This document shows, piece by piece, positions 90 to 10,475 of a stretch of DNA of 10,475 nucleotides. The translations under genes and the position numbers were made by a program. The number at the start of each line of letters is the position of its first letter. Position 1 is the first letter of the stretch. The DNA comes from a virus (taxonomy: Duplodnaviria; Heunggongvirae; Uroviricota; Caudoviricetes). The stretch lies in IMG/VR virus record IMGVR_UViG_2541047124_000005, positions 1 through 10,475 of that record. One strand, given 5' to 3'. The notes beneath the pieces were generated by a model that saw only the letters and a list, made by a program, of their open reading frames with translations, ran no database searches and was not told the origin of the DNA.

Positions 90-488
90 TCACATCTCGT
101 AGGTAATTTTCCACAGGAGATCTGCCGATCCCCACATCATAAACTCATCATCCCGGCGGTAGTCATACCCCTGAAGATTCATCTTCAGCAGTAATGCACT
201 GAGCCCGGGAACTGCCTCCAGCGCAGGAAGAATTTTTTCTTCCATCCACATATCCAGTGCCGAGTCCGGTTCTTTTGCCCTGAGAAAAACCTCAATATGC
301 AGTGTCGCCTCCCAGGTTCCCTCATCAACGAACTCGTCAGCAGCAGACGCATCTGTCAGGTAAACAGCAACAGCAGGCAGTTCCTGTTCATCAATAAAAA
401 CCGGGCGACCGTCAAACCAGCTCACCCTCTCAGAAATATTTTCTTTCAGGGCAGACAGAACTGCCGCCCGTATTTCACGGTGTTTCAT
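90..488 (-). CDS. U: tail terminator protein (lambda gpU family)
   Basis: 132-aa [20 protein letters not shown]...[26 protein letters not shown] aligns along its length with lambda gpU as recalled (MKHTELRAAVLDALEKH...GYDYRRDD...ITYEM). A GGGAGG Shine-Dalgarno lies 4-5 nt upstream of the ATG at 488. Position between Z and V homologs is as expected. Confidence 0.9.
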
Positions 489-1130: not shown

Positions 1131-1408
1131 TCCTGTTCGACAAAAATCCGGGGTTTACCGTTGTACGTGTCATAACGGGTCACCGTCAGTGTGCGCCCCG
1201 CAAACACAACAACATCATGACGGGCCGGACGGTACCGGGCTGAAAACACCACCAGTGACAACTGGCTGCCCGAAAGCGCCCCCATCTCCGCGGACTCTTC
1301 CTCCGGCATCACGTCGTACACGACGCCGTTAATCTCCGCCTGTTTGCCCATCACCCGAACGGTCGCCACGTCCATCCGGCAACACATTCGCGTAAACAGA
1401 TCAGACAT
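1127..1408 (-). CDS. head-tail joining protein, FII-like (putative)
   Basis: 93-aa ORF in the position lambda gpFII occupies (just upstream of Z). Weak but consistent pattern similarity to lambda gpFII as recalled (DLF near the N-terminus, a GV-F/Y-D-PEE block, and an SL-VF block). Overlaps the upstream gene by 8 nt (ATGTCTGA), typical of translational coupling. Confidence 0.55.
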   Translation of the reverse strand: MSDLFTRMCCRMDVATVRVMGKQAEINGVVYDVMPEEESAEMGALSGSQLSLVVFSARYRPARHDVVVFAGRTLTVTRYDTYNGKPRIFVEQE

Positions 1409-1727
1409 TGATTTTTACCGCCACAGTGGCGCTGTTTGCAGGGGCATTTTCCCAGGCTACCCCCGCTGCCACCGCACCGTCTGCAGCCAGCTGCACAACC
1501 CCGTCCTTCAGATAAACCACCGCGCCGGACTGAATGTCGTCAGCAGACTGTTTGGGCAGCAGGAACACGCCTTCGGCAAAACCGTCACCGGCCTCACCGG
1601 CAGGAATATCGGTAATGGCCACGGCCACCATACTGCCGACCACCACCGCAGCACCGCTCAGGATGGTCTGATCTCCGGCATTCACCAGTTCAATGGTGGT
1701 ACCGTCCTGTACAAAATTTTTCGCCAT
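1401..1727 (-). CDS. small Ala/Gly/Val-rich head protein, DUF2190-like (putative capsid decoration or cement protein)
   Basis: 108-aa ORF MAKNFVQDGTTIELVNAGDQTILSGAAVVVGSMVAVAITDIPAGEAGDG... lies directly downstream of the major capsid gene. Its composition and MAKN-type N-terminus resemble the small DUF2190-family proteins that follow capsid genes in many lambdoid prophages, as I recall them. GGAG lies about 10 nt upstream of the ATG. Confidence 0.5.
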   Translation of the reverse strand: MAKNFVQDGTTIELVNAGDQTILSGAAVVVGSMVAVAITDIPAGEAGDGFAEGVFLLPKQSADDIQSGAVVYLKDGVVQLAADGAVAAGVAWENAPANSATVAVKINV

Positions 1728-1768: not shown

Positions 1769-1792
1769 GGCATAAAAAAAGCCCTTTCGGGC
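1769..1792 (-). terminator. candidate intrinsic terminator immediately downstream of the capsid gene
   Basis: On the minus strand: GCCC-GAAA-GGGC (4-bp GC stem with GAAA tetraloop, plus 1781..1792) followed directly by a U7 tract (plus A7 at 1774..1780). Located 23 nt after the capsid stop at 1815. Short stem, so probably a partial terminator. Confidence 0.4.
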
Positions 1793-1814: not shown

Positions 1815-3770
1815 TCAGGCCACCGACGAACGCACCAGCCCGCGCCAGTCAAGTGGTGCCACTCCGGCATCAATACGGATTTTTGTGGCAATGCCGTCAG
1901 TGGTGAAACCTTCCTGCTGATCAATGTATGGCGTGTCCACACCATCCAGCCAGGCCACTTCAATGGTGTCAGTGCCCTGTGCCGCCGCCAGATACCAGGT
2001 TTTCGGGTCTGCCGCATCAAGACGCGCTTCTGCAATCACCTCAGCAAAGTTCTGGATAGGGTTAATGACACCGGCGTTTGCATCCGCCCCTTTCACACTG
2101 GCCGATTTGATGGTCTGGTTCGCCACCGTCTCCAGTGCCACCGGTACCAGCATAAAGGCCGGACGGATATTCAGGGCACGATCGCCTTCTTTCTGCAGGC
2201 GCATCATCTGACGGGCCGCATCCAGTCCGGAAACGGAGATCCCCCCGGTGGCAATATTTTTGTGATCGGCATGGAACAGCGCCTTACCGTCGGACAGTTT
2301 CGGGTTATCCGTCAGCACCTTGTAGACCAGGTCACCAATCGTTGCCTTCGCCGCACGCCCCATCTTCATCGGCACGTCCACCAGCATATTCAGATCATCA
2401 TTGATAATGGCCTGGCGGGTGATGGAGAAAATCTCCCCGTAAGTGGCCAGTGCAATGGTCTCCTTGCGATCTGAGGTGGTGATGTATTTATACTCCGCCC
2501 CCTCACGAACCTGGCGCAGAGAACCAAAACCGCCCATCCCCACGCGATACGCTGTTTTGAAGTCTGACAGGCGTCCCTTACGGGTCCACTTCTGGAAGGT
2601 TTCTTCTGATTCCTCCCAGCCCTGGATCAGCCCCTTGTTCGACACATCCAGCAGAATATTGCCAAAATCAGAGGTGCTGTGCGTCAGCGCCAGCCCGACC
2701 ATCTGCATGGGGTTATAACTGGCCACCCCAATACCGCGCTCCGTCAGTGACATGCGAGCCCATTCACGCAGGGTCATCCCGTTATAGGCGTTATCCTTCT
2801 CGACATTTTCAAATCCGGCACGGGCCAGCATCGCCTGGCGGATCCCGTCCCCCACAAAATTGCCGTTTCCGGCATAAATATGGGCCGGTGTATTTTTGTT
2901 GGTCGGCGAGGACTCCTTGCCCATTTCATTCAGCAGTCGTTCACGGGCCATTTCCAGCGAACAGTCAGGATCAGCCACGCACTGTGCCTGAAGCGTCTGA
3001 TAGCGACCGCCGAACATGGCAAACAGATCGTTAATGCCTGACATGCGGGCTTTCTGTTCTGCCATAACGCGGGCGCGAATGGTCGCCTCATCAGACACTG
3101 CCGGTACCGGTGATGGTTCTGTTACCGCCGGTGCAGGGATTGTCACTGTGGTATCACGCGGGGCACTGTTGCGTGGCGGAGTAATCATGTTTCGGATGGA
3201 TTCCGGCATCTTTTTAAATTCCTCTGTACGTTTTGACTGAATACATGCCATTGCCTCAACGGCGGGTGTCACCTGGTCAGCAAATCCGTGTGCCAGACAT
3301 TCGGCACCGGACATCCAGGTCTCATCCGCCAGCATGGCAGCAATTTCATCGGTGGTTTTCCCGGTTTTCTGTGCATAAGCGGGTAACAGAACCGCCTCAA
3401 CTTTATCGAGCAGGTCGGCATAGGTGCGCATGTCCTCCGCATCACCGCCCGTAAAGCCAAATGGTTTATGAATCATCATGAAGGAGTTTTCCGGCATAAT
3501 GACCGGTTTTCCCACCATCGCAATGACCGACGCCATTGACGCCGCCACACCGTCGACATAAACGGTAATGGACGCACCATGTGTTTTCAGTGCATTAAAA
3601 ATGGCGATGCCTTCAAAGACATCGCCACCCGGTGAATTGATATTGAGATTAATGTGGGTGATATCGCCCAGTGCATTCAGATCACTGATAAACTGCTTCG
3701 CTGTAACACCCCAGAAACCAATCTCGTCATAAATATAAATATCCGCGTCACTCTGGTGACCAGCCTGCAT
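1815..3770 (-). CDS. prohead protease (ClpP/S14-like) fused to major capsid protein
   Basis: One long ORF. The N-terminal region carries a ClpP-like serine protease fold, including a GVAASMAS block (ClpP-type active-site Ser context) and a downstream MIHKP His. A Pro/Ala-rich linker follows (PAPAVTEPSPVPAV), then a roughly 400-aa C-terminal region typical of phage major head proteins. The track ORF begins at 4031, but I place the start at ATG 3770..3768 (MQAGHQSDADIYIYDEIG...), 13 nt after the portal stop, because the upstream 87 codons overlap the portal gene. Confidence 0.85.
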   Translation of the reverse strand: MQAGHQSDADIYIYDEIGFWGVTAKQFISDLNALGDITHINLNINSPGGDVFEGIAIFNALKTHGASITVYVDGVAASMASVIAMVGKPVIMPENSFMMIHKPFGFTGGDAEDMRTYADLLDKVEAVLLPAYAQKTGKTTDEIAAMLADETWMSGAECLAHGFADQVTPAVEAMACIQSKRTEEFKKMPESIRNMITPPRNSAPRDTTVTIPAPAVTEPSPVPAVSDEATIRARVMAEQKARMSGINDLFAMFGGRYQTLQAQCVADPDCSLEMARERLLNEMGKESSPTNKNTPAHIYAGNGNFVGDGIRQAMLARAGFENVEKDNAYNGMTLREWARMSLTERGIGVASYNPMQMVGLALTHSTSDFGNILLDVSNKGLIQGWEESEETFQKWTRKGRLSDFKTAYRVGMGGFGSLRQVREGAEYKYITTSDRKETIALATYGEIFSITRQAIINDDLNMLVDVPMKMGRAAKATIGDLVYKVLTDNPKLSDGKALFHADHKNIATGGISVSGLDAARQMMRLQKEGDRALNIRPAFMLVPVALETVANQTIKSASVKGADANAGVINPIQNFAEVIAEARLDAADPKTWYLAAAQGTDTIEVAWLDGVDTPYIDQQEGFTTDGIATKIRIDAGVAPLDWRGLVRSSVA

Positions 3771-3783
3771 CCTGAACCAGGAA

Positions 3784-5293
3784 TTATTCTTCGGACTGGT
3801 CGTCGGTGTGCTGCGGCTCCTGTCGTTTCGTTGCGGCACTGCTGCCTCCTTTATCACTGGCCGGATCGGTATCAAATACCAGATCCAGCTTGCGGTTTTC
3901 ATCAATTTCGGCCTTGCGCCGACGTTTGACATCATCCGGATTACGACCACCTGCACGTACCCAGTCTGATTCTGTCGCTGCTCCACCACGAATCTGAATT
4001 TTCCAGGCCTCAGCCTCCTTAACAGGGTCAATCCACGGCATCACCGGTCCGGAATACACCGCGGTATACAGTGAAGAACGGTCAAGATCGCGGGGTAGCC
4101 TGATAACACCGGATGCCACAGCCTGTTTCAGCCAGGCACGATACATCGGGCGGGTGACGGCACCAATAAACCAGTCCTGCAGGATCAGGTAGCCATCAGT
4201 GGATTCAACCAGCTCCTGACGCTGGGCGCTGTAAGTGCCGTTATAGTTGCGCGCTGTACTGGAAAAAATTCAGACGACTGCCCGCCGCCACGGCACGCAA
4301 CTGACCATTACGAAAAGTTTCAAGGTTAGGATTGGGGCGATCCGACTTCACCATTCCGATTTCTTCGCCGGGTTTCAGATCGTCGTAAATAATGCCTGGC
4401 TGAATGGTAAGCTCGCGTTCCTTATCCTTGCTGCCATTACCATCCGGTTCATAGCTCTGCCCATCGCCTTTCCGGATGTACATCCCCAGAGCAGCGGCGA
4501 TCCTTGCTGCAGTCAGCTCAGAATCCTCATACTCTTTCAGGGCACTGAGGCGGATCAGCACACCGGACAACAAAGACGTCCCGCGCATCTGGTGCAGACG
4601 GCGAACAAATTTAAGATGCAGCATTCGCTCTGCATCCACTTCTTTGGTTTCCATCTGCCGTCCGGATACGGGACGGCTTTTATACACCAGATATTTTTCG
4701 GGACGCCCCCAGTCATCAACAAACACGCCCTGATTCAGCCTGTTGCTCTCATCACTGGTCATGGGAATAAAGTCTGGCTCGAGCGCCTCCAGCCAGAAAT
4801 GAACACCGGCAGAAGGCGTCAGGCTGTTTATGCGCCCGGAAACCATCTGGGCAAACACCTCACCATCGCGCAGCCAGGTACGCAGCATCAGACGTTCCAG
4901 CATCGGACGGGTAAACTGCCCGGTGACTTCCGGACTGACAGACCATTCACTCCATCGGGTGCGTATCTCCGCTGCCAGATCACGGGCAATGGCCCCATTG
5001 CGTAATACCGGATGTGGCTCGACAATAATCCCGTTTTTCCCCACCACCCGTTCTTCCAGCTTGTCAAATACACCAATAACCAGATCGTGGTTGTTATCAA
5101 GGTAACGGGCCTGCTCACGTAACGACACGGCCCCGTACTGGCTTAACTGGTCGGCAGTTCGGTTTTCCCGCCGGGCTTTGTGTGTCCGCGTCGTTTTTAC
5201 GGCCTCATAAGCCTGGATCACCGCACGGGAACGCAGCCTTGCCGCTTTCCATCCTGGTGAAAAAACGCCAATCACATCATCAAGAATTGCCAT
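3784..5293 (-). pseudogene. portal protein (lambda gpB family), reading frame interrupted by an apparent +1 insertion in a homopolymer run (A6 on plus strand at 4263..4268); genuine inactivation versus sequencing error cannot be decided from sequence
   Basis: Two consecutive track ORFs (4241..5365, 374 aa, and 3784..4146, 120 aa) are in different frames. The upstream frame ends ...AVAAGSRLNFFQYSAQL*. Deleting one T from the T6 run on the gene strand gives ...RLNFSSTARNYNGTYSAQRQELVES... and runs continuously into the downstream ORF, giving a protein of about 502 aa. The restored junction resembles the corresponding lambda gpB segment as I recall it (...SYEQLSRNYAQMSYSTARAS...). Start placed at ATG 5293..5291 (MAILDDVIG...), overlapping the gpW stop as TGATG. 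Confidence 0.8.
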
Positions 5294-5505
5294 CAGAACC
5301 TCGCCAGCCGGTACCCGGGATGCCCCCGTCGTCGTGTAATCAGAGCCGCAAGGCGGCGCTCCCACTCCTGCCGTCCCTGCCGGATCTCAGATAAGTTTTC
5401 CATGGTCATCTGCTGACCATTAAAGGTGACGGATTTTCCGTCCAGCACCGCCATTTCAGCTTCCGTATAACGCTGAATCATGGCTTCGATATCATTCTGG
5501 TTCAT
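5293..5505 (-). CDS. W: head-tail joining / head completion protein (lambda gpW family)
   Basis: Small ORF between terL and portal, as in lambda (A-W-B). The C-terminus ...ITRRRGHPGYRLARF resembles the lambda gpW C-terminus as recalled (...QRRRGPAGFYV). Start chosen at the third codon (ATG 5505..5503, protein MNQNDIEAM...) because GGAGG lies 6 nt upstream of it; the track start at 5511 abuts the SD. Confidence 0.7.
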   Translation of the reverse strand: MNQNDIEAMIQRYTEAEMAVLDGKSVTFNGQQMTMENLSEIRQGRQEWERRLAALITRRRGHPGYRLARF

Positions 5506-7604
5506 AACCATCCTCCGGAAGTCAGCCAGGGGTTAACATCGTCAGTTACTGTTTTCTTCCGTTTTTGTTTTTTAACAGGCGTGGATACCGGTTCCGGTGA
5601 GGGTGACGGTTCGGTACTGTCCGGGACACTCTCCAGCCAGGTTTCCCGGCTCGCCCACCCCGGTGCATCCGGCCAGCGGATCTTTTCGTATCCATGCAGA
5701 ATGACCAGAGCCTCGGCATACACCATCAGGTCAAAAGCTTCGTTGGCACCGCGACCCGGCTTACTCCATTTCCCGTCACTACTCCGCTCTTCATACGTCA
5801 GTTCGTCGTAAAACCAGCTCCCCAGCCAGTCAGGGAAATGCACATAGCCGGGACCTGGAGAGTCACGCCATAACGCGTTATTCACCCGGTCTTTCAGTGC
5901 ATCCGTCTGAAGAAGCCAGAGCGGCACATCACCTGCGGCCTGCGCCCGTCGGCCCGTTCGTCCGGTGTTATCAGGGAATGTACGGGTGATCAGTTTTGCG
6001 CGCCGGATGCTGTCGCCCTTAAACAGGTAAATACGTTTACCAAGGCCATCACGACGGCAACGACGCCAGAATTTATAGGCATTATCAGTGACCCCGTCTT
6101 CACCGCCGGAGTCCACCGCCATTGCCATCAGTCGCATTTGTTGAGAAGGATCGGAGGCCAGCGGCCAGCTTTTATGAAAAACATCCGTCAGCAGGACATC
6201 CCAGTCTTCCGGATAGCTGGCCGGATCAATTCGCTGGCTCTCACCGTCGCTGTCACCGCGCAATGACTGCGTGATGTTGTAACGATCAATAATCCAGCGT
6301 TCGCCACGGCTGCCATAGCCCGTTACCTGAACCACAAAACGGCGATGACGTCCCGCCTGCACATCCACTGTCGCCACAAGGAAATTAACGCCATCCGGCA
6401 CACTGCTGGAAGGAACTGGCTCTGCCCGCTGCTCAAGCAGTTCACTTTTTCGTTGCTCCATGCTGGCGCGGGGAAGATAAGGTAATCCCCAGTCGGTATT
6501 GATAACCGTCTTGAGTGTTTCTTCACTTCCGGTTGTCTCGTATTCCTGTTCTGCAGTAAGCAGTTTGTAAACGAGTTGCGAGAGTGTCTGGTAAGCAGCT
6601 GCCGGACCCTCCATCCAGAATGACGCAATACGTGAGCGTCGGGGATCACCATAACGACTACCATCCGCATTGATGGATTCACCATCCCGCAACCAGACCC
6701 CACGTCCGTTCAGCTCACGTTTTTGTTCAGGCATAATCCGTCCTGAACAGGAAGGACACTGAATATAAGCCGCCTCACTTGCCAGCACGGGATCGGCAAT
6801 ATCACGGAAACCAGCAACCACATCGCCGCAGGGCTGAAAATACTCACCACAGTGTGGACAGGGCCAGTACCAGCGACGGCGATCGCCACGGTTATAGAGC
6901 GACAGTATCCCCGTGGTTGGTGGAGCCTCATGCGGTGAAGTCCGTCGCCATTTCACATCCTTCACATCCCTGCCGGGGGAACTCTCCACCAGCGTCATAC
7001 CACTGGACATAAATGTGGTGGTACGTTTTGAGGCAAGAGAGAAGGCATCCCCCTCGCCATCAATATCTTCCGGAAAACGGTCATAATCCGTCAGCGCCAC
7101 GCATTTATAATCTGATGAGGACATGATATTGACTGACGGCCAGCCGATTTTCAGGTAGTTGCCAGCAAGGAATGTTCTGTCATAAACGTTGTTGTCATTT
7201 TTGTTCGGACTCAGGCGACTGACCACTTCCGGGCTGACGCGAAACGTTCTGGCGAGTCGTTTTTTGGAGTGTTCGCGGGCTTTTTCCTCCGTCATCTGAA
7301 TGATCAGCATATCCGCAGGATCGCAAATCACGTTGTAAATCACCCAGCCGTCAATCAGGCCGATAGTCTTGCCGGTTCGTGCCGGGCCAACAAATATCAC
7401 TGCGTCGTATTCACGCGAGGCCAGGCAGTTCATCGGCTCAATAACATACGGTGCCACCAGCGGATCCCACGGGACTGAGTTCCCGGCCCCCATGGGCACC
7501 CGCATATACTGAGCAACGGCATCAGCAACCCGCATTCGTCTCGGTGCGCGAAGGATATAACCTGAATCGGTTCGTGCTGCCTTTGCGGTTTCCTGATTCA
7601 GCAT
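5502..7604 (-). CDS. A: terminase large subunit (lambda gpA family)
   Basis: 700-aa ORF with a Walker A motif VGPARTGKT (about nt 7365..7388) and a CPHCGE motif matching the ACPHCGE block of lambda gpA. Further blocks resemble gpA as recalled (...WIIDRYNI... versus SWLIDRQII; AFDLMVYAEAL versus ALDCFVYALAAL). The start ATG overlaps the terS stop (TAATG) and is preceded by GGAGGAG. Confidence 0.95.
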   Translation of the reverse strand: MLNQETAKAARTDSGYILRAPRRMRVADAVAQYMRVPMGAGNSVPWDPLVAPYVIEPMNCLASREYDAVIFVGPARTGKTIGLIDGWVIYNVICDPADMLIIQMTEEKAREHSKKRLARTFRVSPEVVSRLSPNKNDNNVYDRTFLAGNYLKIGWPSVNIMSSSDYKCVALTDYDRFPEDIDGEGDAFSLASKRTTTFMSSGMTLVESSPGRDVKDVKWRRTSPHEAPPTTGILSLYNRGDRRRWYWPCPHCGEYFQPCGDVVAGFRDIADPVLASEAAYIQCPSCSGRIMPEQKRELNGRGVWLRDGESINADGSRYGDPRRSRIASFWMEGPAAAYQTLSQLVYKLLTAEQEYETTGSEETLKTVINTDWGLPYLPRASMEQRKSELLEQRAEPVPSSSVPDGVNFLVATVDVQAGRHRRFVVQVTGYGSRGERWIIDRYNITQSLRGDSDGESQRIDPASYPEDWDVLLTDVFHKSWPLASDPSQQMRLMAMAVDSGGEDGVTDNAYKFWRRCRRDGLGKRIYLFKGDSIRRAKLITRTFPDNTGRTGRRAQAAGDVPLWLLQTDALKDRVNNALWRDSPGPGYVHFPDWLGSWFYDELTYEERSSDGKWSKPGRGANEAFDLMVYAEALVILHGYEKIRWPDAPGWASRETWLESVPDSTEPSPSPEPVSTPVKKQKRKKTVTDDVNPWLTSGGWL

Positions 7605-8095
7605 TACTCCTCCTGCTGTAATTCCTCCTCATCATCCGCACCTGCTTCGGTCACCCGCAGGGCTATCTGATCGCGCAGATCATCAATAATGGACTGAACA
7701 CGGCTCACAGCGGCAGGCTGCAGACCACAGTCACGTTCCAGAATATCCGGTAATGTCTCCAGCACCTGCACGACCGCTTTTGCCCAGATGGCAAACTCCC
7801 GTCTGACATCACTGGCCGGAATGAGTTGTGCCGTTTCCTGTTCGAACTTAAGACGCTCACGTTCAGACTGATACCAGGCTTTGCGTTCATGTGGATCCAT
7901 TTCGCCCTCAGCAACCGGCGGTGGTAACCCCATAAATTCAGTCAGAATATCGGTCAACCGGTATAGCTTGAGTTTGTCATGTCCACCAGCGGGACGAATG
8001 TTTTTCAGTCTTGCCACGACAGTCTGGCGGTGCAGACCAGATAAAGCCGCCAGTTGATTAATATTCAGCACCAGGTTTTTCAACTCATGATCCAT
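7604..8095 (-). CDS. terminase small subunit (Nu1-like, N-terminal HTH DNA-binding domain)
   Basis: 163-aa ORF immediately upstream of, and overlapping, terL. N-terminal LNINQLAALSGLHRQTVVARLKN is a helix-turn-helix-like segment as in Nu1-type small terminases; the C-terminus is acidic (DDEEELQQEE). GGAGG lies 4-5 nt upstream of the ATG at 8095. The candidate cos site lies about 180-200 bp upstream, the same spacing as in lambda. Confidence 0.8.
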   Translation of the reverse strand: MDHELKNLVLNINQLAALSGLHRQTVVARLKNIRPAGGHDKLKLYRLTDILTEFMGLPPPVAEGEMDPHERKAWYQSERERLKFEQETAQLIPASDVRREFAIWAKAVVQVLETLPDILERDCGLQPAAVSRVQSIIDDLRDQIALRVTEAGADDEEELQQEE

Positions 8096-8104
8096 ATTTC
8101 CTCC

Positions 8105-8300
8105 GGAGAGCTTTAAACATGCATCGTGCGAACAACTTTAAGAAAACGCGTTCGATGTCGAACAAAAAACACTCAATTCGACATACAAAAAACAAATAAC
8201 CATTAATAATCAATAAGATGCAAAGATGATGGTGGCCGATAAAAATGCAAAAACTAGCCTTTTTCCGCGACGCTCCCGCCCCGTGGCAGGCCACCCCACC
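8105..8300 (-). other. candidate cos site: cosN-like GC-rich core (plus 8265..8286) plus AT-rich cosB-like region with TCGA-containing repeats (plus 8110..8200)
   Basis: On the gene strand the sequence reads ...CCTCCCGGTGGGGTGGCCTGCCACG GGGCGGGAGCGT CGCGGAAAAAGG..., which parallels the lambda cos junction as I recall it (...TTTCCGGTGATCCGACAGGTTACG GGGCGGCGACCT CGCGGGTTTTCGC...). The 12-mer GGGCGGGAGCGT (plus 8270..8281) differs from the lambda cohesive end at 4 positions. Between it and terS lies an AT-rich stretch with A-tracts and repeated TTCGA/TCGAAC motifs (8126..8136, 8150..8163, 8177..8193), including the palindrome GTTCGA-TG-TCGAAC, plausibly terS-binding R elements. Confidence 0.45.
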
Positions 8301-8703
8301 GGGAGGAGCCGTCAGCCTGAAAGCCATGACGAACGTCTGATACAGCCCTTGCATGAATGGCATCGGGATAATCCAGAAAGGAATAGCATCGACCCACAAG
8401 AATCTGTGTGAGTGTCCTGTTTCTTCCACCCCCGCACAGGACTGGCGAGCATGAGGGACAAACCCGCGAATCATTAGCGCGGTAAAAACCCGGTGTGCAT
8501 CGTTTTTGATTATTCCCGCACACTCGCGCAGAAGGAGTTCCCCGTCGGGCTACGGTCATGGTTAATGCGGGAATACAGCGACGATACAGCGCATGATGTG
8601 TCAGGCTTGAATACCTTTATCCGTTAAAAGGGATATCAGTTAAGTTATCCCGTGTAGGGTATAAGCCATTATCAAGCCCACCAGTAGATGGGCTTTGTAA
8701 TGG

Positions 8704-8961
8704 CTACTTCGCTTTTGCTTCCGCTCGCTTACGCCGGCGCTCTTCTTTCCTCTCGGCTTTTGCCATGTCCATGAATGCCTGCATGATCGAGTTCCGCATC
8801 ATGTAGCTAACAAAGTGATGATTGACACAGCCGTTGAGGCGCAGCTGCTCGCCAAACTCATCCACCGAGGCCAATGCTTCCATCATACCCTTCTCGCCTT
8901 TCATGAACTCTGAGAAGTCGCGCCCCGCTCTGGAGGCGCATTCAATGACACGATCACTCAT
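8704..8961 (-). CDS. hypothetical small protein (85 aa), or frameshifted C-terminal part of the upstream KilA-N-like gene
   Basis: ORF MSDRVIECASRAGRDFSEFMKGEKGMM...AKAERKEERRRKRAEAKAK with a highly charged Lys/Arg/Glu-rich C-terminus. Its ATG (8961..8959) overlaps the stop of the upstream ORF as ATGA. No family recognised with confidence. Confidence 0.4.
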   Translation of the reverse strand: MSDRVIECASRAGRDFSEFMKGEKGMMEALASVDEFGEQLRLNGCVNHHFVSYMMRNSIMQAFMDMAKAERKEERRRKRAEAKAK

Positions 8962-9455
8962 CCCGGAAGCCCGGGGATCGAAATCTGCAACTGGTTAGCC
9001 AGGGAGTTAATTTCAGCGATCAAACCAGGTTTCGTGTAGCGCCATGCCGCGAGGCCTTGTCCACAGAAGCTCGCCATGTCTTTTTTCTGATCAAACTCAT
9101 GACATTTCATGTTGAGCTGCGCACTTAAGCTGTTCCGATGATGAAGCTCTCCGGTGAAGTAATCATCGAGGACTTTATAGGCTGCATATTTAAATCCGGG
9201 GTTTAGCCATGCTGCGTAATCATAAGCAACGAACTTTCCGCCATAAGTTCCACCGTGCGCACCGCGTTCCGTAAAAACCACAGATTCGTGGTTTTTCTCC
9301 AGCTCAGCCAAGAACTCTTTGGTCTGCTTGTTTCGCAGGTAGTGGTACGGAGATTCAGATTCACTTTTACCACTGGCTTTCCACATATCAGTGAGGCAGA
9401 TCATGCCATCTTCACCGATACGGATTGGTTGATTGAAGAGGGTTAATGATTTCAT
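8958..9455 (-). CDS. KilA-N domain-like protein (accessory gene between the lysis cassette and cos)
   Basis: 165-aa ORF MKSLTLFNQPIRIGEDGMICLTDMWKASGKSESESPYHYLRNKQTKEFLAELEK...GGTYGGKFVAYDYAAWLNPGF... The pattern (segment ending in G-x-I/Y, then L-T/N-D-hydrophobic-x-K-A-x-GK, then W/YLR-x-x-x-T-x-EF, then a G-T-W/Y-hydrophobic...A-x-W-x-x-P-x-F block) matches my recollection of the KilA-N/APSES-type domain. AGG lies 8 nt upstream of the ATG. Confidence 0.5.
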   Translation of the reverse strand: MKSLTLFNQPIRIGEDGMICLTDMWKASGKSESESPYHYLRNKQTKEFLAELEKNHESVVFTERGAHGGTYGGKFVAYDYAAWLNPGFKYAAYKVLDDYFTGELHHRNSLSAQLNMKCHEFDQKKDMASFCGQGLAAWRYTKPGLIAEINSLANQLQISIPGLPG

Positions 9456-9657: not shown

Positions 9658-10095
9658 TTATTTCAGGCATTGCGTCCTGATGTACTCCTGCAGGTAGTTA
9701 ACCTGCGCGGTTATCTTGTCGATTCCACCTCGGAGACGGTAATAATTGAGTTCAGCATCTGCTGTAAGTCCTGGGCTTTCTCCATCGCCCATGCTGCTGG
9801 CTCCGGTCGTTGACTTTGCACAGGTGGCGGAGACTTGCAGGCGCTTACGCCCAGCAGAAACATCAGCACGGAGACTTTCGATAGTCGCATTAGCATCAGC
9901 AAGCTCCTTTGTGTATCTGGCGTCAAGTTCTGCTACATCACGTTGCCGCTTCTGCATATCAGCGATGATGGATGTGGCTTTATCGCGCTGCTCTTTGTAG
10001 GCGATGGCGTTATCACGGTAATGATTAACAGCCCATGACAGGCAGGCGATAATGCAGATAACCAGAGCGGAGATAATAACGGTTACCCTGCTCAT
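9658..10095 (-). CDS. Rz: i-spanin Rz (inner-membrane spanin subunit)
   Basis: Translation from ATG 10095..10093 gives [39 protein letters not shown]..., near-identical at the N-terminus to lambda Rz as recalled ([39 protein letters not shown]...). N-terminal TM segment followed by a charged coiled-coil-like region. The track start at 10107 is a GTG with no room for an SD; the ATG at 10095 is preceded by GGGGG at 5 nt and overlaps the endolysin stop (ATGA). Confidence 0.9.
9711..9896 (-). CDS. Rz1: o-spanin Rz1 (outer-membrane lipoprotein), entirely embedded in the +1 frame of Rz
   Basis: Track ORF 9711..9926 lies wholly within Rz in another frame. From the internal Met at 9896 the product is [20 protein letters not shown]|[16 protein letters not shown]...: short basic n-region, hydrophobic core, lipobox-like VSAC, then a Pro-rich mature region as in lambda Rz1. 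Exact start (9896, 9890 or 9926) is uncertain. Confidence 0.7.
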
Positions 10096-10475
10096 TGTTG
10101 CCCCCACAAACAGACTTCACGCTCAATCTCGCGGCGAGTCATCAGCCCTTTCCATTGCTTACCGCCAGCGTATGTCCAGCGCCGTAGCTGATCACATGCG
10201 CCTTTGATATCGCCCTGGTTTATTTTGCGAAGAAGCGTCGATGTTCTGAAATTGCCAGCGCCCACGTTGTAAACGAACGAGTAAAGAGCGCCGCGCGTTG
10301 TTTCCGGTATATCGACGTTGATGTACGGGTTAATTTGTCTGGCGACCGTGGCAAGGTCTTTATTCAGGAGGGCTTTGCATTCTGCTTCGGTATACGTTTT
10401 ACCGGGAATGATGTCTTTTCCGGTGTGTCCGTGACATACAGTCCATACGCCAACGATATCTTTGTATGGTATGTA
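10092..10475 (-). CDS. endolysin, phage lysozyme type (GH24, T4 lysozyme / P21 R family); C-terminal 127 codons only, 5' end beyond the right edge of the window
   Basis: Minus-strand translation from the window edge is open for 127 codons to TGA at 10094..10092: [127 protein letters not shown]. The G[11 protein letters not shown] block and overall layout match the phage lysozyme family (compare P22 gp19 TIGVGHTGK). Not in the ORF track because no start codon lies within the window. Confidence 0.85.

Follow-up and report, generated by a model that had tools for sequence, protein, structure and literature searches.

The window analyzed here, a stretch of 10,475 nucleotides of viral DNA, carries on its minus strand an open reading frame at positions 1815..4031, which corresponds to 738 amino acids counted from a TTG codon in the ORF listing of the window. 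The frame lies between a lambda-family portal gene and the gene for a head decoration protein (Table 1). Its TTG-start translation holds the motifs GVAASMAS and MIHKP, both of which had been pointed out in the first-pass annotation, as well as a Pro/Ala-rich segment, PPRNSAPRDTTVTIPAPAVTEPSPVPAV, and a long C-terminal domain. As had also been reported there, the upper part of the frame overlaps the 3′ end of the portal gene in another frame; the portal ORF ends with TAA at 3786-3784. The ORF listing and Pfam searches on the neighbours reveal no further minus-strand gene between the portal stop and the decoration gene, in agreement with the earlier statement that no separate protease or scaffold gene intervenes between portal and capsid. 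A terminator-like hairpin was recognized by eye just 3′ of the fusion gene. A pattern scan for terminators did not list this hairpin because its stem has only 4 pairs; in phage mEp460, a rho-independent terminator is annotated at the equivalent place.

Table 1. Features of the fusion gene and its surroundings in the window. Residue numbers are those of the 674-aa product.
Feature	Position	Strand	Details
Lambda-family portal gene	3784..5365	minus	split into 4241-5365 and 3784-4146; Phage_portal_2 E=1e-73
Upper open frame, most likely non-coding here	3840..4031	minus	portal gene 3′ part, other frame
Shine-Dalgarno AAAGGAGG	3845..3852	minus	5 nt 5′ of GTG 3839; within portal codons K-G-G
Fused protease-scaffold-capsid gene, best reading	1815..3839	minus	GTG 3839 to TGA 1817-1815, 674 aa
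Basic N-terminal peptide MPQRNDRSRSTPTTSPKNNS, residues 1-20, predicted disordered	3780..3839	minus	pLDDT <50 at 1-17
ATG 3770, Met24, most likely an internal codon	3768..3770	minus	no Shine-Dalgarno; codon variability; strand 22-26
ClpP-like (peptidase S14 fold) prohead protease domain, residues 21-192	3264..3779	minus	
Catalytic residues	Ser101 3537-3539; His124 3468-3470; Glu173 3321-3323	minus	
Intragenic recombination junction	3257..3321	minus	sliding identity and informative sites
Boundary segment, residues 193-222	3174..3263	minus	conserved SKR(T/I)EEFxKMP motif; pLDDT ~72
In-frame ATG, Met211	3209-3207	minus	in boundary segment; GAGGA 3224-3220 ahead
Disordered Pro/Ala-rich linker, residues 223-246	3102..3173	minus	pLDDT <50
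Three-helix scaffold-like domain, residues 250-310	2910..3092	minus	helices 251-274, 281-289, 295-308; pLDDT 87-96
Low-confidence connector ESSPTNKNTPAHIYAGNGN, residues 311-327	2859..2909	minus	pLDDT 57-61 between confident domains
HK97-fold major capsid domain, residues 328-674	1818..2858	minus	
Terminator-like hairpin GCCC-GAAA-GGGC then T7	1774..1792	minus	just 3′ of fusion gene
Head decoration (cement) protein gene	1401..1727	minus	Phage_cement_2 E=7e-19; position as in Gifsy-2, mEp460

The proposal that a protease, a linker and a capsid protein are encoded as a single ORF is borne out by Pfam, by the conservation of the catalytic residues, by the structure model and by synteny with Gifsy-2. 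On the 738-aa track, Pfam CLP_protease was found at residues 95-255 (E=4e-36), inside the interval 90-300 to which a protease fold had been assigned, and Phage_capsid_4 at residues 448-735 (E=7e-56). A structure model based on a shallow alignment (14 sequences of 75-96% identity) had a mean pLDDT of 36 and was discarded; the model used here, from a 101-sequence alignment, has a pLDDT of 85.5. Ser101 and His124 turned out to be invariant in the 101 sequences (34-96% identity), and residue 173, which aligns with the Asp of ClpP, is Glu or Asp in 97 of them. The N-terminal peptide, most of which overlaps the portal 3′ end, follows a pattern conserved across Enterobacterales relatives, MPxxxxRxxxRPKASxKxNS. 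The Pro/Ala linker differs among relatives in both sequence and length. The three-helix domain is covered by no Pfam family in the Pfam search, and it is common to a second fusion family, NF045541. A whole-protein search of solved structures gave only ClpP chains, and the capsid domain was therefore searched separately; this domain is Mu-gpT-like (Pfam PF10124; solved structures 8rkc/8rkx). The connector is, according to the model, a candidate maturation cleavage region.

The fusion protein scores 992.6 bits against the NCBIfam model NF045540 (cutoff 475), with residues 32-672 aligned to profile positions 2-651 of 652, and 1157 bits against phrog_133. It has the parts expected of an NF045540-type protein: an N-terminal ClpP-fold serine protease with its catalytic residues, a central linker and scaffold region (223-246 plus 250-310) that aligns with the central region of Gifsy-2, and, with no break in the frame, an HK97-fold capsid domain at the C-terminus. 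The portal gene lies 5′ and the decoration gene 3′, as in Gifsy-2, ASU11 and mEp460. The type 2 fusion model NF045541 remains below its cutoff (418.3 vs. 525 bits), matching residues 213-671 only and leaving the protease unmatched. A lambda gpC-type S49/SppA protease is not indicated either (SppA_dom, 22.5 bits vs. a cutoff of 155), nor is a cellular ClpP, since TIGR00493 gives 61.6 bits vs. 308.6 and the remaining ClpP equivalogs fall well short of their cutoffs. The protease has the fold and the catalytic residues of ClpP, but these scores set it apart from the cellular enzyme. Among the best 150 cluster representatives (clustering at 50% identity), over 100 hold the entire fusion at a length of 640-740 aa, a full-length match was obtained for 74 phage records, and many full-length relatives have 36-60% identity. 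A first scan of viral contigs recovered only close relatives of at least 74% identity; a second one added a Pseudomonas-type clade. The fused gene very probably encodes a 674-aa head-shell precursor of the Gifsy-2 ‘tripartite capsid gene’ type. As such, the observation is already known: the gene is an ordinary member of a common, described phage head gene family.

Effantin et al. are said to have described the fused ‘tripartite capsid gene’ for Gifsy-2 in 2010 (Virology 402:355); the gene reportedly yields capsids bearing a lambda-gpD-like decoration protein. The Gifsy-2 product STM1034.3n (696 aa), a homologue along the full length, is 62% identical over residues 18-673 and has the same protease-central-capsid order. 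The gene order is shared as well (large terminase, W-like, portal, fusion, decoration, FII-like, Z, U), and the Gifsy-2 fusion also starts inside the portal 3′ end. The start there is ATG with an 86-nt portal overlap, whereas here it is most likely GTG with an overlap of 56 nt. The two proteins differ in the sequence and length of the N-terminal peptide and of the Pro/Ala linker (696 vs. 674 aa), and the window copy, in contrast to that of Gifsy-2, adjoins a frameshifted portal. A passage of PMC8538268 cites the 3-fold axes of Gifsy-2 as carrying a trimeric decoration protein.

The fusions of E. coli lambdoid and Stx phages (ASU11, VT1-Sakai, Stx2 phages, CP-1639, mEp460, cdtI, Ayreon, mEp213, LLS) show 76-96% protein identity and a synteny identical to that of the window; their annotations differ, some reading protease/scaffold, others head maturation protease or major capsid protein. 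Pseudomonas phage MD8 has the same three-in-one gene, gp5 (PMC8508860). The MD8 relatives D14L and F10 are 57% identical over residues 18-674; MD8 and its relatives belong to another host group and have another N-terminus. In HK97, a scaffold-like delta domain is fused to the gp5 capsid protein and is cut off by the prohead protease gp4, the product of a separate gene (PMC8508860). Pfam and NCBIfam searches gave no match of the fusion protein to HK97-type protease families. The fold of the HK97 protease is unrelated to the ClpP-like fold found here. Lambda gpC/Nu3 and Mu gpI/gpZ resemble the present case in that protease and scaffold reside on one polypeptide adjoining the portal gene, but in lambda and Mu the capsid protein has its own gene. 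Lambda gpC is an S49/SppA-type enzyme, and Nu3-in-C and Z-in-I are nested scaffold genes.

The start of the gene most likely lies at GTG 3839, 23 codons 5′ of ATG 3770. In most of 116 distinct junctions, AAGGAGG or AAGGAG stands at an aligned spacing of 5 ahead of an in-frame GTG or ATG, and in some lineages ATG takes the place of GTG 3839. Most homologues of 671-675 or 686 aa use the equivalent start, and for RefSeq E. coli PGAP gives an equivalent CDS of 675 aa. The first-pass annotation had preferred ATG 3770, and this codon is indeed in frame, with 87 codons of the ORF above it, and gives a 651-aa version beginning 13 nt past the portal stop. Such a start would avoid the portal overlap; the position is ATG in 91 of the 116 junctions, and its equivalent is used by the mEp460 RefSeq CDS and by database entries of 648 or 651 aa. 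The choice does not hold up, however, against the comparison of junctions: in 115 of the 116 a Shine-Dalgarno match upstream is absent, and in 25 the codon is ATT, ATC, CTC, GCA, ATA or GTC, i.e., a non-start codon. In the wide family the Met24 column reads I38/M24/V6/L5, with Ile in Gifsy-2, and in the structure model Met24 belongs to a beta-strand predicted with confidence (22-26) in the protease domain. Immediately 5′ of ATG 3770, the codons for S-W-F-R keep their amino acids while changing synonymously, with Ser codons AGC18/TCC16/TCG4/TCA2/AGT2, Phe codons TTC29/TTT16 and Arg codons CGC20/CGT11/AGG4/CGG3/AGA1. The PKAS..KSWFRM peptide is still conserved, without overlap, where the portal of relatives stops further upstream. 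Initiation at ATG 3770 thus appears improbable. A much longer product, started at TTG 4031 or at the ATG of the 706-aa form of ASU11, would carry ~65-87 extra codons over the portal and an added peptide LTLLRRLRPGKFRF...IKEAA. The frame does stay open up to 4031, the ASU11 product is annotated as 706 aa, and one cluster representative has 707 aa. Nevertheless, a Shine-Dalgarno sequence is missing for every upstream ATG and TTG codon of the window, the upstream open length among relatives ranges from 19 to 168 codons with stops just above the GTG-equivalent in several of them, and the extension peptide is unconserved while the portal frame is conserved, which makes this the least probable of the starts considered. 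The earlier view that all 87 upstream codons are non-coding is hence retained for the 64 codons at 3840-4031 and abandoned for the 23 codons from GTG 3839, which are most likely coding.

The conservation of AAAGGAGG could partly reflect the portal codons K-G-G that it overlaps. Some database ‘proteins’ of 1158-1159 aa join the portal and the fusion. A programmed frameshift was considered for them and rejected, as the frame switches at several differing positions. Each of these entries is one sequence, and the clusters of the normal forms have hundreds to thousands of members. Sporadic frameshifts that lead into the open frame upstream are the best explanation for the long entries.

The portal gene of the window is itself in two pieces, a detail absent from the first-pass annotation: alignment with the portals of ASU11 and mEp460, which are intact, shows a fixed frameshift caused by one inserted base in the T run 4263-4268. 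A 251-nt query across the insertion has at least 99% identity in 353 complete E. coli genome records, with 100% among the matches listed, and one E. coli record that was inspected has two portal CDS. The frameshift suggests that the copy in the window is probably within a defective prophage. The fusion gene could then be intact and yet an idle remnant which, with a broken portal and no heads, has no function here; we see this as an even bet. The wide occurrence of the same insertion is consistent with it, and in VT1-Sakai an IS629 copy disrupts the fusion gene itself. On the other side, the fusion ORF has its full length and shares 96% identity with its counterpart in ASU11, an induced phage, and lambdoid prophages can be complemented or repaired through recombination with co-resident prophages. 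Moreover, a +1 slip at the T run would, as read from the sequence, restore the portal frame.

Recombination has also left a mark inside the fusion gene. Unlike its lambdoid and Stx relatives, the window gene is chimeric, with an mEp460-type protease half 5′ of the junction and an ASU11-type scaffold-capsid half 3′ of it, each at 97-100% DNA identity; the junction falls at the protease/scaffold boundary. The conserved boundary stretch may also be the crossover point for swaps of protease vs. scaffold-capsid modules between phages. The same stretch contains Met211, an in-frame ATG from which a second product, a 464-aa protease-less scaffold-capsid chain, might be made beside the full-length protein, in parallel to Nu3-in-C of lambda and Z-in-I of Mu. 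Glu206 is GAG in 50 of 50 Enterobacterales genes, the sole fixed codon among 17 conserved Glu columns, and GAG is the minor codon; Lys203 is AAA in 50 of 50, the sole fixed codon among 14 Lys columns. In the Pseudomonas-type clade, residue 206 is E, Q or K, with NAG as its codon and GAN as the next one in every case, so that AGGA is kept 10-11 nt 5′ of a conserved ATG. Raw synonymous diversity has its gene-wide minimum at residues 193-218, but after correction for amino-acid identity this stretch is merely joint-lowest (permutation p=0.07). In the wide family column 211 reads A19/V19/M15/I14/P13 and only Pro212 is conserved (93 of 101 sequences), which indicates that a protein-level motif accounts for much of the signal. 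In addition, the GAGG-to-ATG spacing of 11 nt is long for E. coli, and the joining of two lineages by recombination in this very stretch can also depress diversity. We therefore treat the synonymous-constraint signal at 193-218 as a weak hint and not as a finding, and consider a second product unlikely, though less so than a start at ATG 3770.

With a single 674-aa precursor as the preferred reading, self-processing of the fusion protein would be expected by analogy, from its membership in the Gifsy-2 family. The removal of the protease and scaffold parts is reportedly known for this family solely through the Gifsy-2 literature; a literature search for cleavage-site or proteomic data on fusion proteins found nothing useful. 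Translation would begin at GTG 3839 via the AAAGGAGG ribosome-binding site, located within the last part of the portal gene. The capsid domains would then build up a procapsid around the portal; its interior would hold the protease and helical parts, cf. the HK97 delta domain. By cleaving, probably within the connector (~311-327), the crowded protease domains could release both themselves and the scaffold from the capsid domain. The fragments would exit, the shell would expand during DNA packaging, and the protein encoded next (1401-1727) would decorate the expanded shell. In this scheme we infer the inward orientation, the activation step and the position of cleavage.

The discovery value of these data is small, given the Gifsy-2 precedent of 2010, a naming model of its own at NCBI and the many lambdoid phages (Stx phages among them) and prophages that carry the gene. 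Their practical value is annotation. The gene goes under differing names in public records (protease, scaffold, Nu3, gpC, major capsid protein, even terminase), which also use at least four starts (648/651, 656, 674 and 706 aa), and the comparative evidence favours one of them, GTG 3839 and its equivalents, with the popular ATG being most likely an internal codon. The recombination junction at a domain boundary offers a clean case of module exchange within one phage gene. If the internal start at Met211 were real, the gene would give two products and set the ratio of protease to shell, as lambda Nu3-in-C sets the ratio of scaffold to protease.

The minus-strand ORF 1815-4031 exists as the first-pass annotation described it, with 738 codons from TTG. 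Pfam assigns residues 95-255 of the 738-aa track to CLP_protease (E=4e-36) and residues 448-735 to Phage_capsid_4 (E=7e-56). The first-pass annotation had been ready to give up its reading if residues 90-300 lacked a protease fold, and this objection falls away because CLP_protease lies at 95-255. NF045540, an NCBIfam model dedicated to the protease/capsid fusion architecture ([quoted passage not shown]), matches with 992.6 bits against a cutoff of 475, and PHROGs assigns the protein to phrog_133 with 1157 bits. The equivalent gene of RefSeq E. coli genomes bears the NF045540 name. The family models, the catalytic residues, the structure model and the gene order shared with Gifsy-2 all support protease and capsid protein in a single ORF, with no separate protease or scaffold gene. 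In NCBIfam, the protein is far below all cutoffs of the cellular ClpP models and SppA. It belongs with the phage head proteases of ClpP fold and is neither a cellular ClpP nor an enzyme of the lambda gpC type.

According to the ORF list and Pfam, all genes of the window belong to one minus-strand lambdoid late-gene block (see the table). ORFs 8085-8474, 8254-8559 and 8704-8961 have no Pfam match, and the window ORFs include no further gene between portal and decoration gene. Since the portal ORF ends at TAA 3786-3784, the top of ORF 1815-4031 overlaps it in another frame. The fusion-gene DNA is shared at 94-95% identity by the E. coli phages ASU11, VT1-Sakai and several Stx2 phages; for mEp460, Ayreon and relatives, the figure is about 83%. 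In VT1-Sakai, the gene is interrupted by IS629. Directly 3' of the fusion gene, a short hairpin (GCCC-GAAA-GGGC) followed by seven T forms a terminator-like structure (1774-1792, minus), in the same place as the annotated rho-independent terminator of mEp460. A second, 7-bp hairpin lies at about 1744-1760, just 5' of the ribosome-binding site of the decoration gene.

Genes of the block, and parts of the fusion protein (residues of the 674-aa form starting at GTG 3839)
Feature	Position	Strand	Remark
Rz lysis gene	9658-10107	minus	first in block order, 5' of terminase genes
KilA-N/ORF11CD3 (Bro-like) gene	8958-9455	minus	after Rz, before terminase genes
DUF1441 small-terminase-type gene	7604-8095	minus	Pfam
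gpA-type large terminase	5502-7604	minus	Pfam
Small W-like ORF		minus	between large terminase and portal
Lambda-family portal, split	4241-5365 and 3784-4146	minus	after W-like ORF, before fusion gene
Cement/decoration gene	1401-1727	minus	next after fusion gene
Gifsy-2/FII-like head-tail gene, then gpZ and gpU tail genes		minus	block end
Disordered segment	residues 1-17		structure model
Compact domain	residues 21-192		structure model; first strands 22-26 and 31-36
Boundary segment	residues 193-222		structure model, moderate confidence
Pro/Ala linker, disordered	residues 223-246		structure model
Three helices	residues 251-274, 281-289, 295-308		structure model, confident
Weak connector	residues 311-327		structure model
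Large alpha/beta domain	residues 328-674		structure model; long spine helix 484-511

The protein parts listed come from a structure model built on 101 diverse sequences (mean pLDDT 85.5); a first model from a shallow alignment (pLDDT 36) was not usable. None of the 101 sequences departs from Ser101 (GVAASMAS) or His124 (MIHKP). At residue 173, which aligns with the ClpP catalytic Asp, 87 of them have Glu and 10 have Asp.

The start at ATG 3770 chosen in the first-pass annotation is contradicted by several independent lines of evidence. Of the 116 distinct portal/fusion junctions gathered from genomes and viral contigs, 115 have no Shine-Dalgarno match for the equivalent codon, and in 25 this codon is no start codon (ATT, ATC, CTC, GCA, ATA, GTC); Gifsy-2 has Ile there. 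The four codons 5' of it keep Ser-Trp-Phe-Arg despite abundant synonymous change, which for Ser crosses between the two codon families and for Arg between AGG and CGN, a pattern characteristic of translated sequence. PKAS..KSWFRM is likewise kept in relatives whose portal stops further upstream, leaving no overlap. In the wider family, the column of Met24 (the ATG 3770 residue) reads I38/M24/V6/L5, with conserved Trp21 and Phe/Tyr22 on one side and conserved Ala26 on the other, and residues 22-26 are modelled as a beta-strand of the protease domain. A better start, GTG 3839, lies 23 codons upstream of ATG 3770 and 5 nt after AAAGGAGG; GTG (ATG in some lineages) with this Shine-Dalgarno arrangement occurs in most of the 116 junctions. 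Most database homologues (671-675 and 686 aa) start at its equivalent with MPxxxxRxxxRPKASxKxNSWFRMQA, as does the RefSeq PGAP annotation. Because these five lines (ribosome-binding site, upstream coding signature, conservation, structure and a better start) speak against ATG 3770, the gene most likely runs from 3839 to 1815, encodes 674 aa and overlaps the portal by 56 nt.

The Shine-Dalgarno motif of GTG 3839 coincides with portal codons Lys-Gly-Gly, and its conservation may be partly protein-driven. GGA is a rare Gly codon in E. coli. Its consistent use at this Gly speaks for selection at the RNA level.

Above 3839, relatives have 19 to 168 open codons, several of them with interrupting stops, and every start in this part lacks a ribosome-binding site; the frame is open by chance. 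The earlier view of the 87-codon extension as non-coding overlap holds above 3839 and probably fails for the 23 codons directly upstream of ATG 3770, from GTG 3839 on. The 706-aa product annotated in ASU11 is an over-call, given this variable, stop-broken upstream frame without a ribosome-binding site. Public records assign the gene at least four different starts, and inconsistent names: protease/scaffold, Nu3, protease C, major capsid protein, Clp protease, even terminase. A protein collection (P0055-P0067) also holds about ten "portal + protease + capsid" chains of 1158-1159 aa, one sequence each. They switch frame at several differing positions and are best explained by sporadic frameshifts near the end of the portal (its 3' part) that continue into the open upstream frame of the fusion gene.

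In the portal itself, one base has been inserted into the T run 4263-4268 as compared to ASU11 and mEp460 (GAGTTTTTCC to GAATTTTTTCC, within 4241-4270, minus), and this breaks the gene into ORFs 4241-5365 and 3784-4146. A 251-nt query across it has at least 99% identity in 353 complete E. coli genome records, with 100% among the ten matches listed, several of them O157:H7, and the E. coli record inspected lists two portal CDS. These matches mark the insertion as inherited rather than as a read error. The prophage is probably defective; hypothetically, tRNA-Phe slipping by +1 on the T run would bring the portal back into one frame.

The gene is chimeric. The sequence matches mEp460 at 97-100% identity from 5300 to 3301 (portal and protease half) and ASU11 at 97-100% from 3200 to 1723 (scaffold-capsid half and downstream spacer). 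Informative sites change type between 3321 and 3257 (minus), which puts a recombination junction within the final helix of the protease domain. In agreement with this junction, NF045541, a second NCBIfam fusion family, matches only residues 213-671. Just 3' of the junction, the conserved stretch SKR(T/I)EEFxKMP has unusual codon fixity (AAA CGT ACA GAG GAA TTT AAA AAG ATG, 3207-3231, minus): among conserved columns of 50 relatives, GAG206 is the sole fixed Glu codon and AAA203 the sole fixed Lys codon. An AGGA motif 10-11 nt upstream of the conserved in-frame ATG of Met211 persists in the Pseudomonas-type clade though the amino acid changes. AGGA may act as a weak internal ribosome-binding site, from which a nested scaffold-capsid product would be started. 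However, the constraint scan misses significance after correction (p=0.07), the wider family does not keep Met211, and recombination at this very spot offers another explanation, in which the stretch may be a recombination linker. The protease part and the scaffold-capsid part act as exchangeable modules.

In most phages having a ClpP-like head protease, it is a separate gene. The fusion protein belongs to a large family: it has a full-length match in 74 phage records, and two viral-contig scans gave at least 581 and at least 588 confirmed relatives. Of the top 150 hits in a library of 50%-identity representatives, over 100 are full-length fusions of 640-740 aa with 36-60% identity. The prototype studied by experiment is phage Gifsy-2; its STM1034.3n (696 aa) is 62% identical over residues 18-673 and its gene order matches. 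PMC8538268, citing the Gifsy-2 work, describes a decoration protein that sits as a trimer at the 3-fold axes. In Pseudomonas phage MD8, one 693-aa gene comprises protease, scaffold and capsid protein (PMC8508860).

By analogy with HK97 and from reports on Gifsy-2, the capsid domains would build a procapsid on the portal with their N-terminal parts inside. In HK97, a scaffold-like delta domain is fused to the capsid protein. Here, the concentrated protease domains would excise themselves and the helical scaffold-like part, the cut falling most plausibly within residues 311-327, the flexible connector. On packaging, the shell would expand and bind the decoration protein from the next gene. What the analysis itself shows is the set of parts, the catalytic residues, the folds and the synteny, and from these and the analogies the processing steps are inferred. 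The first-pass observation stands and its main interpretation is correct, but the fusion gene is a routine member of a described, curated family; the useful yield is a corrected gene model together with a few side observations.
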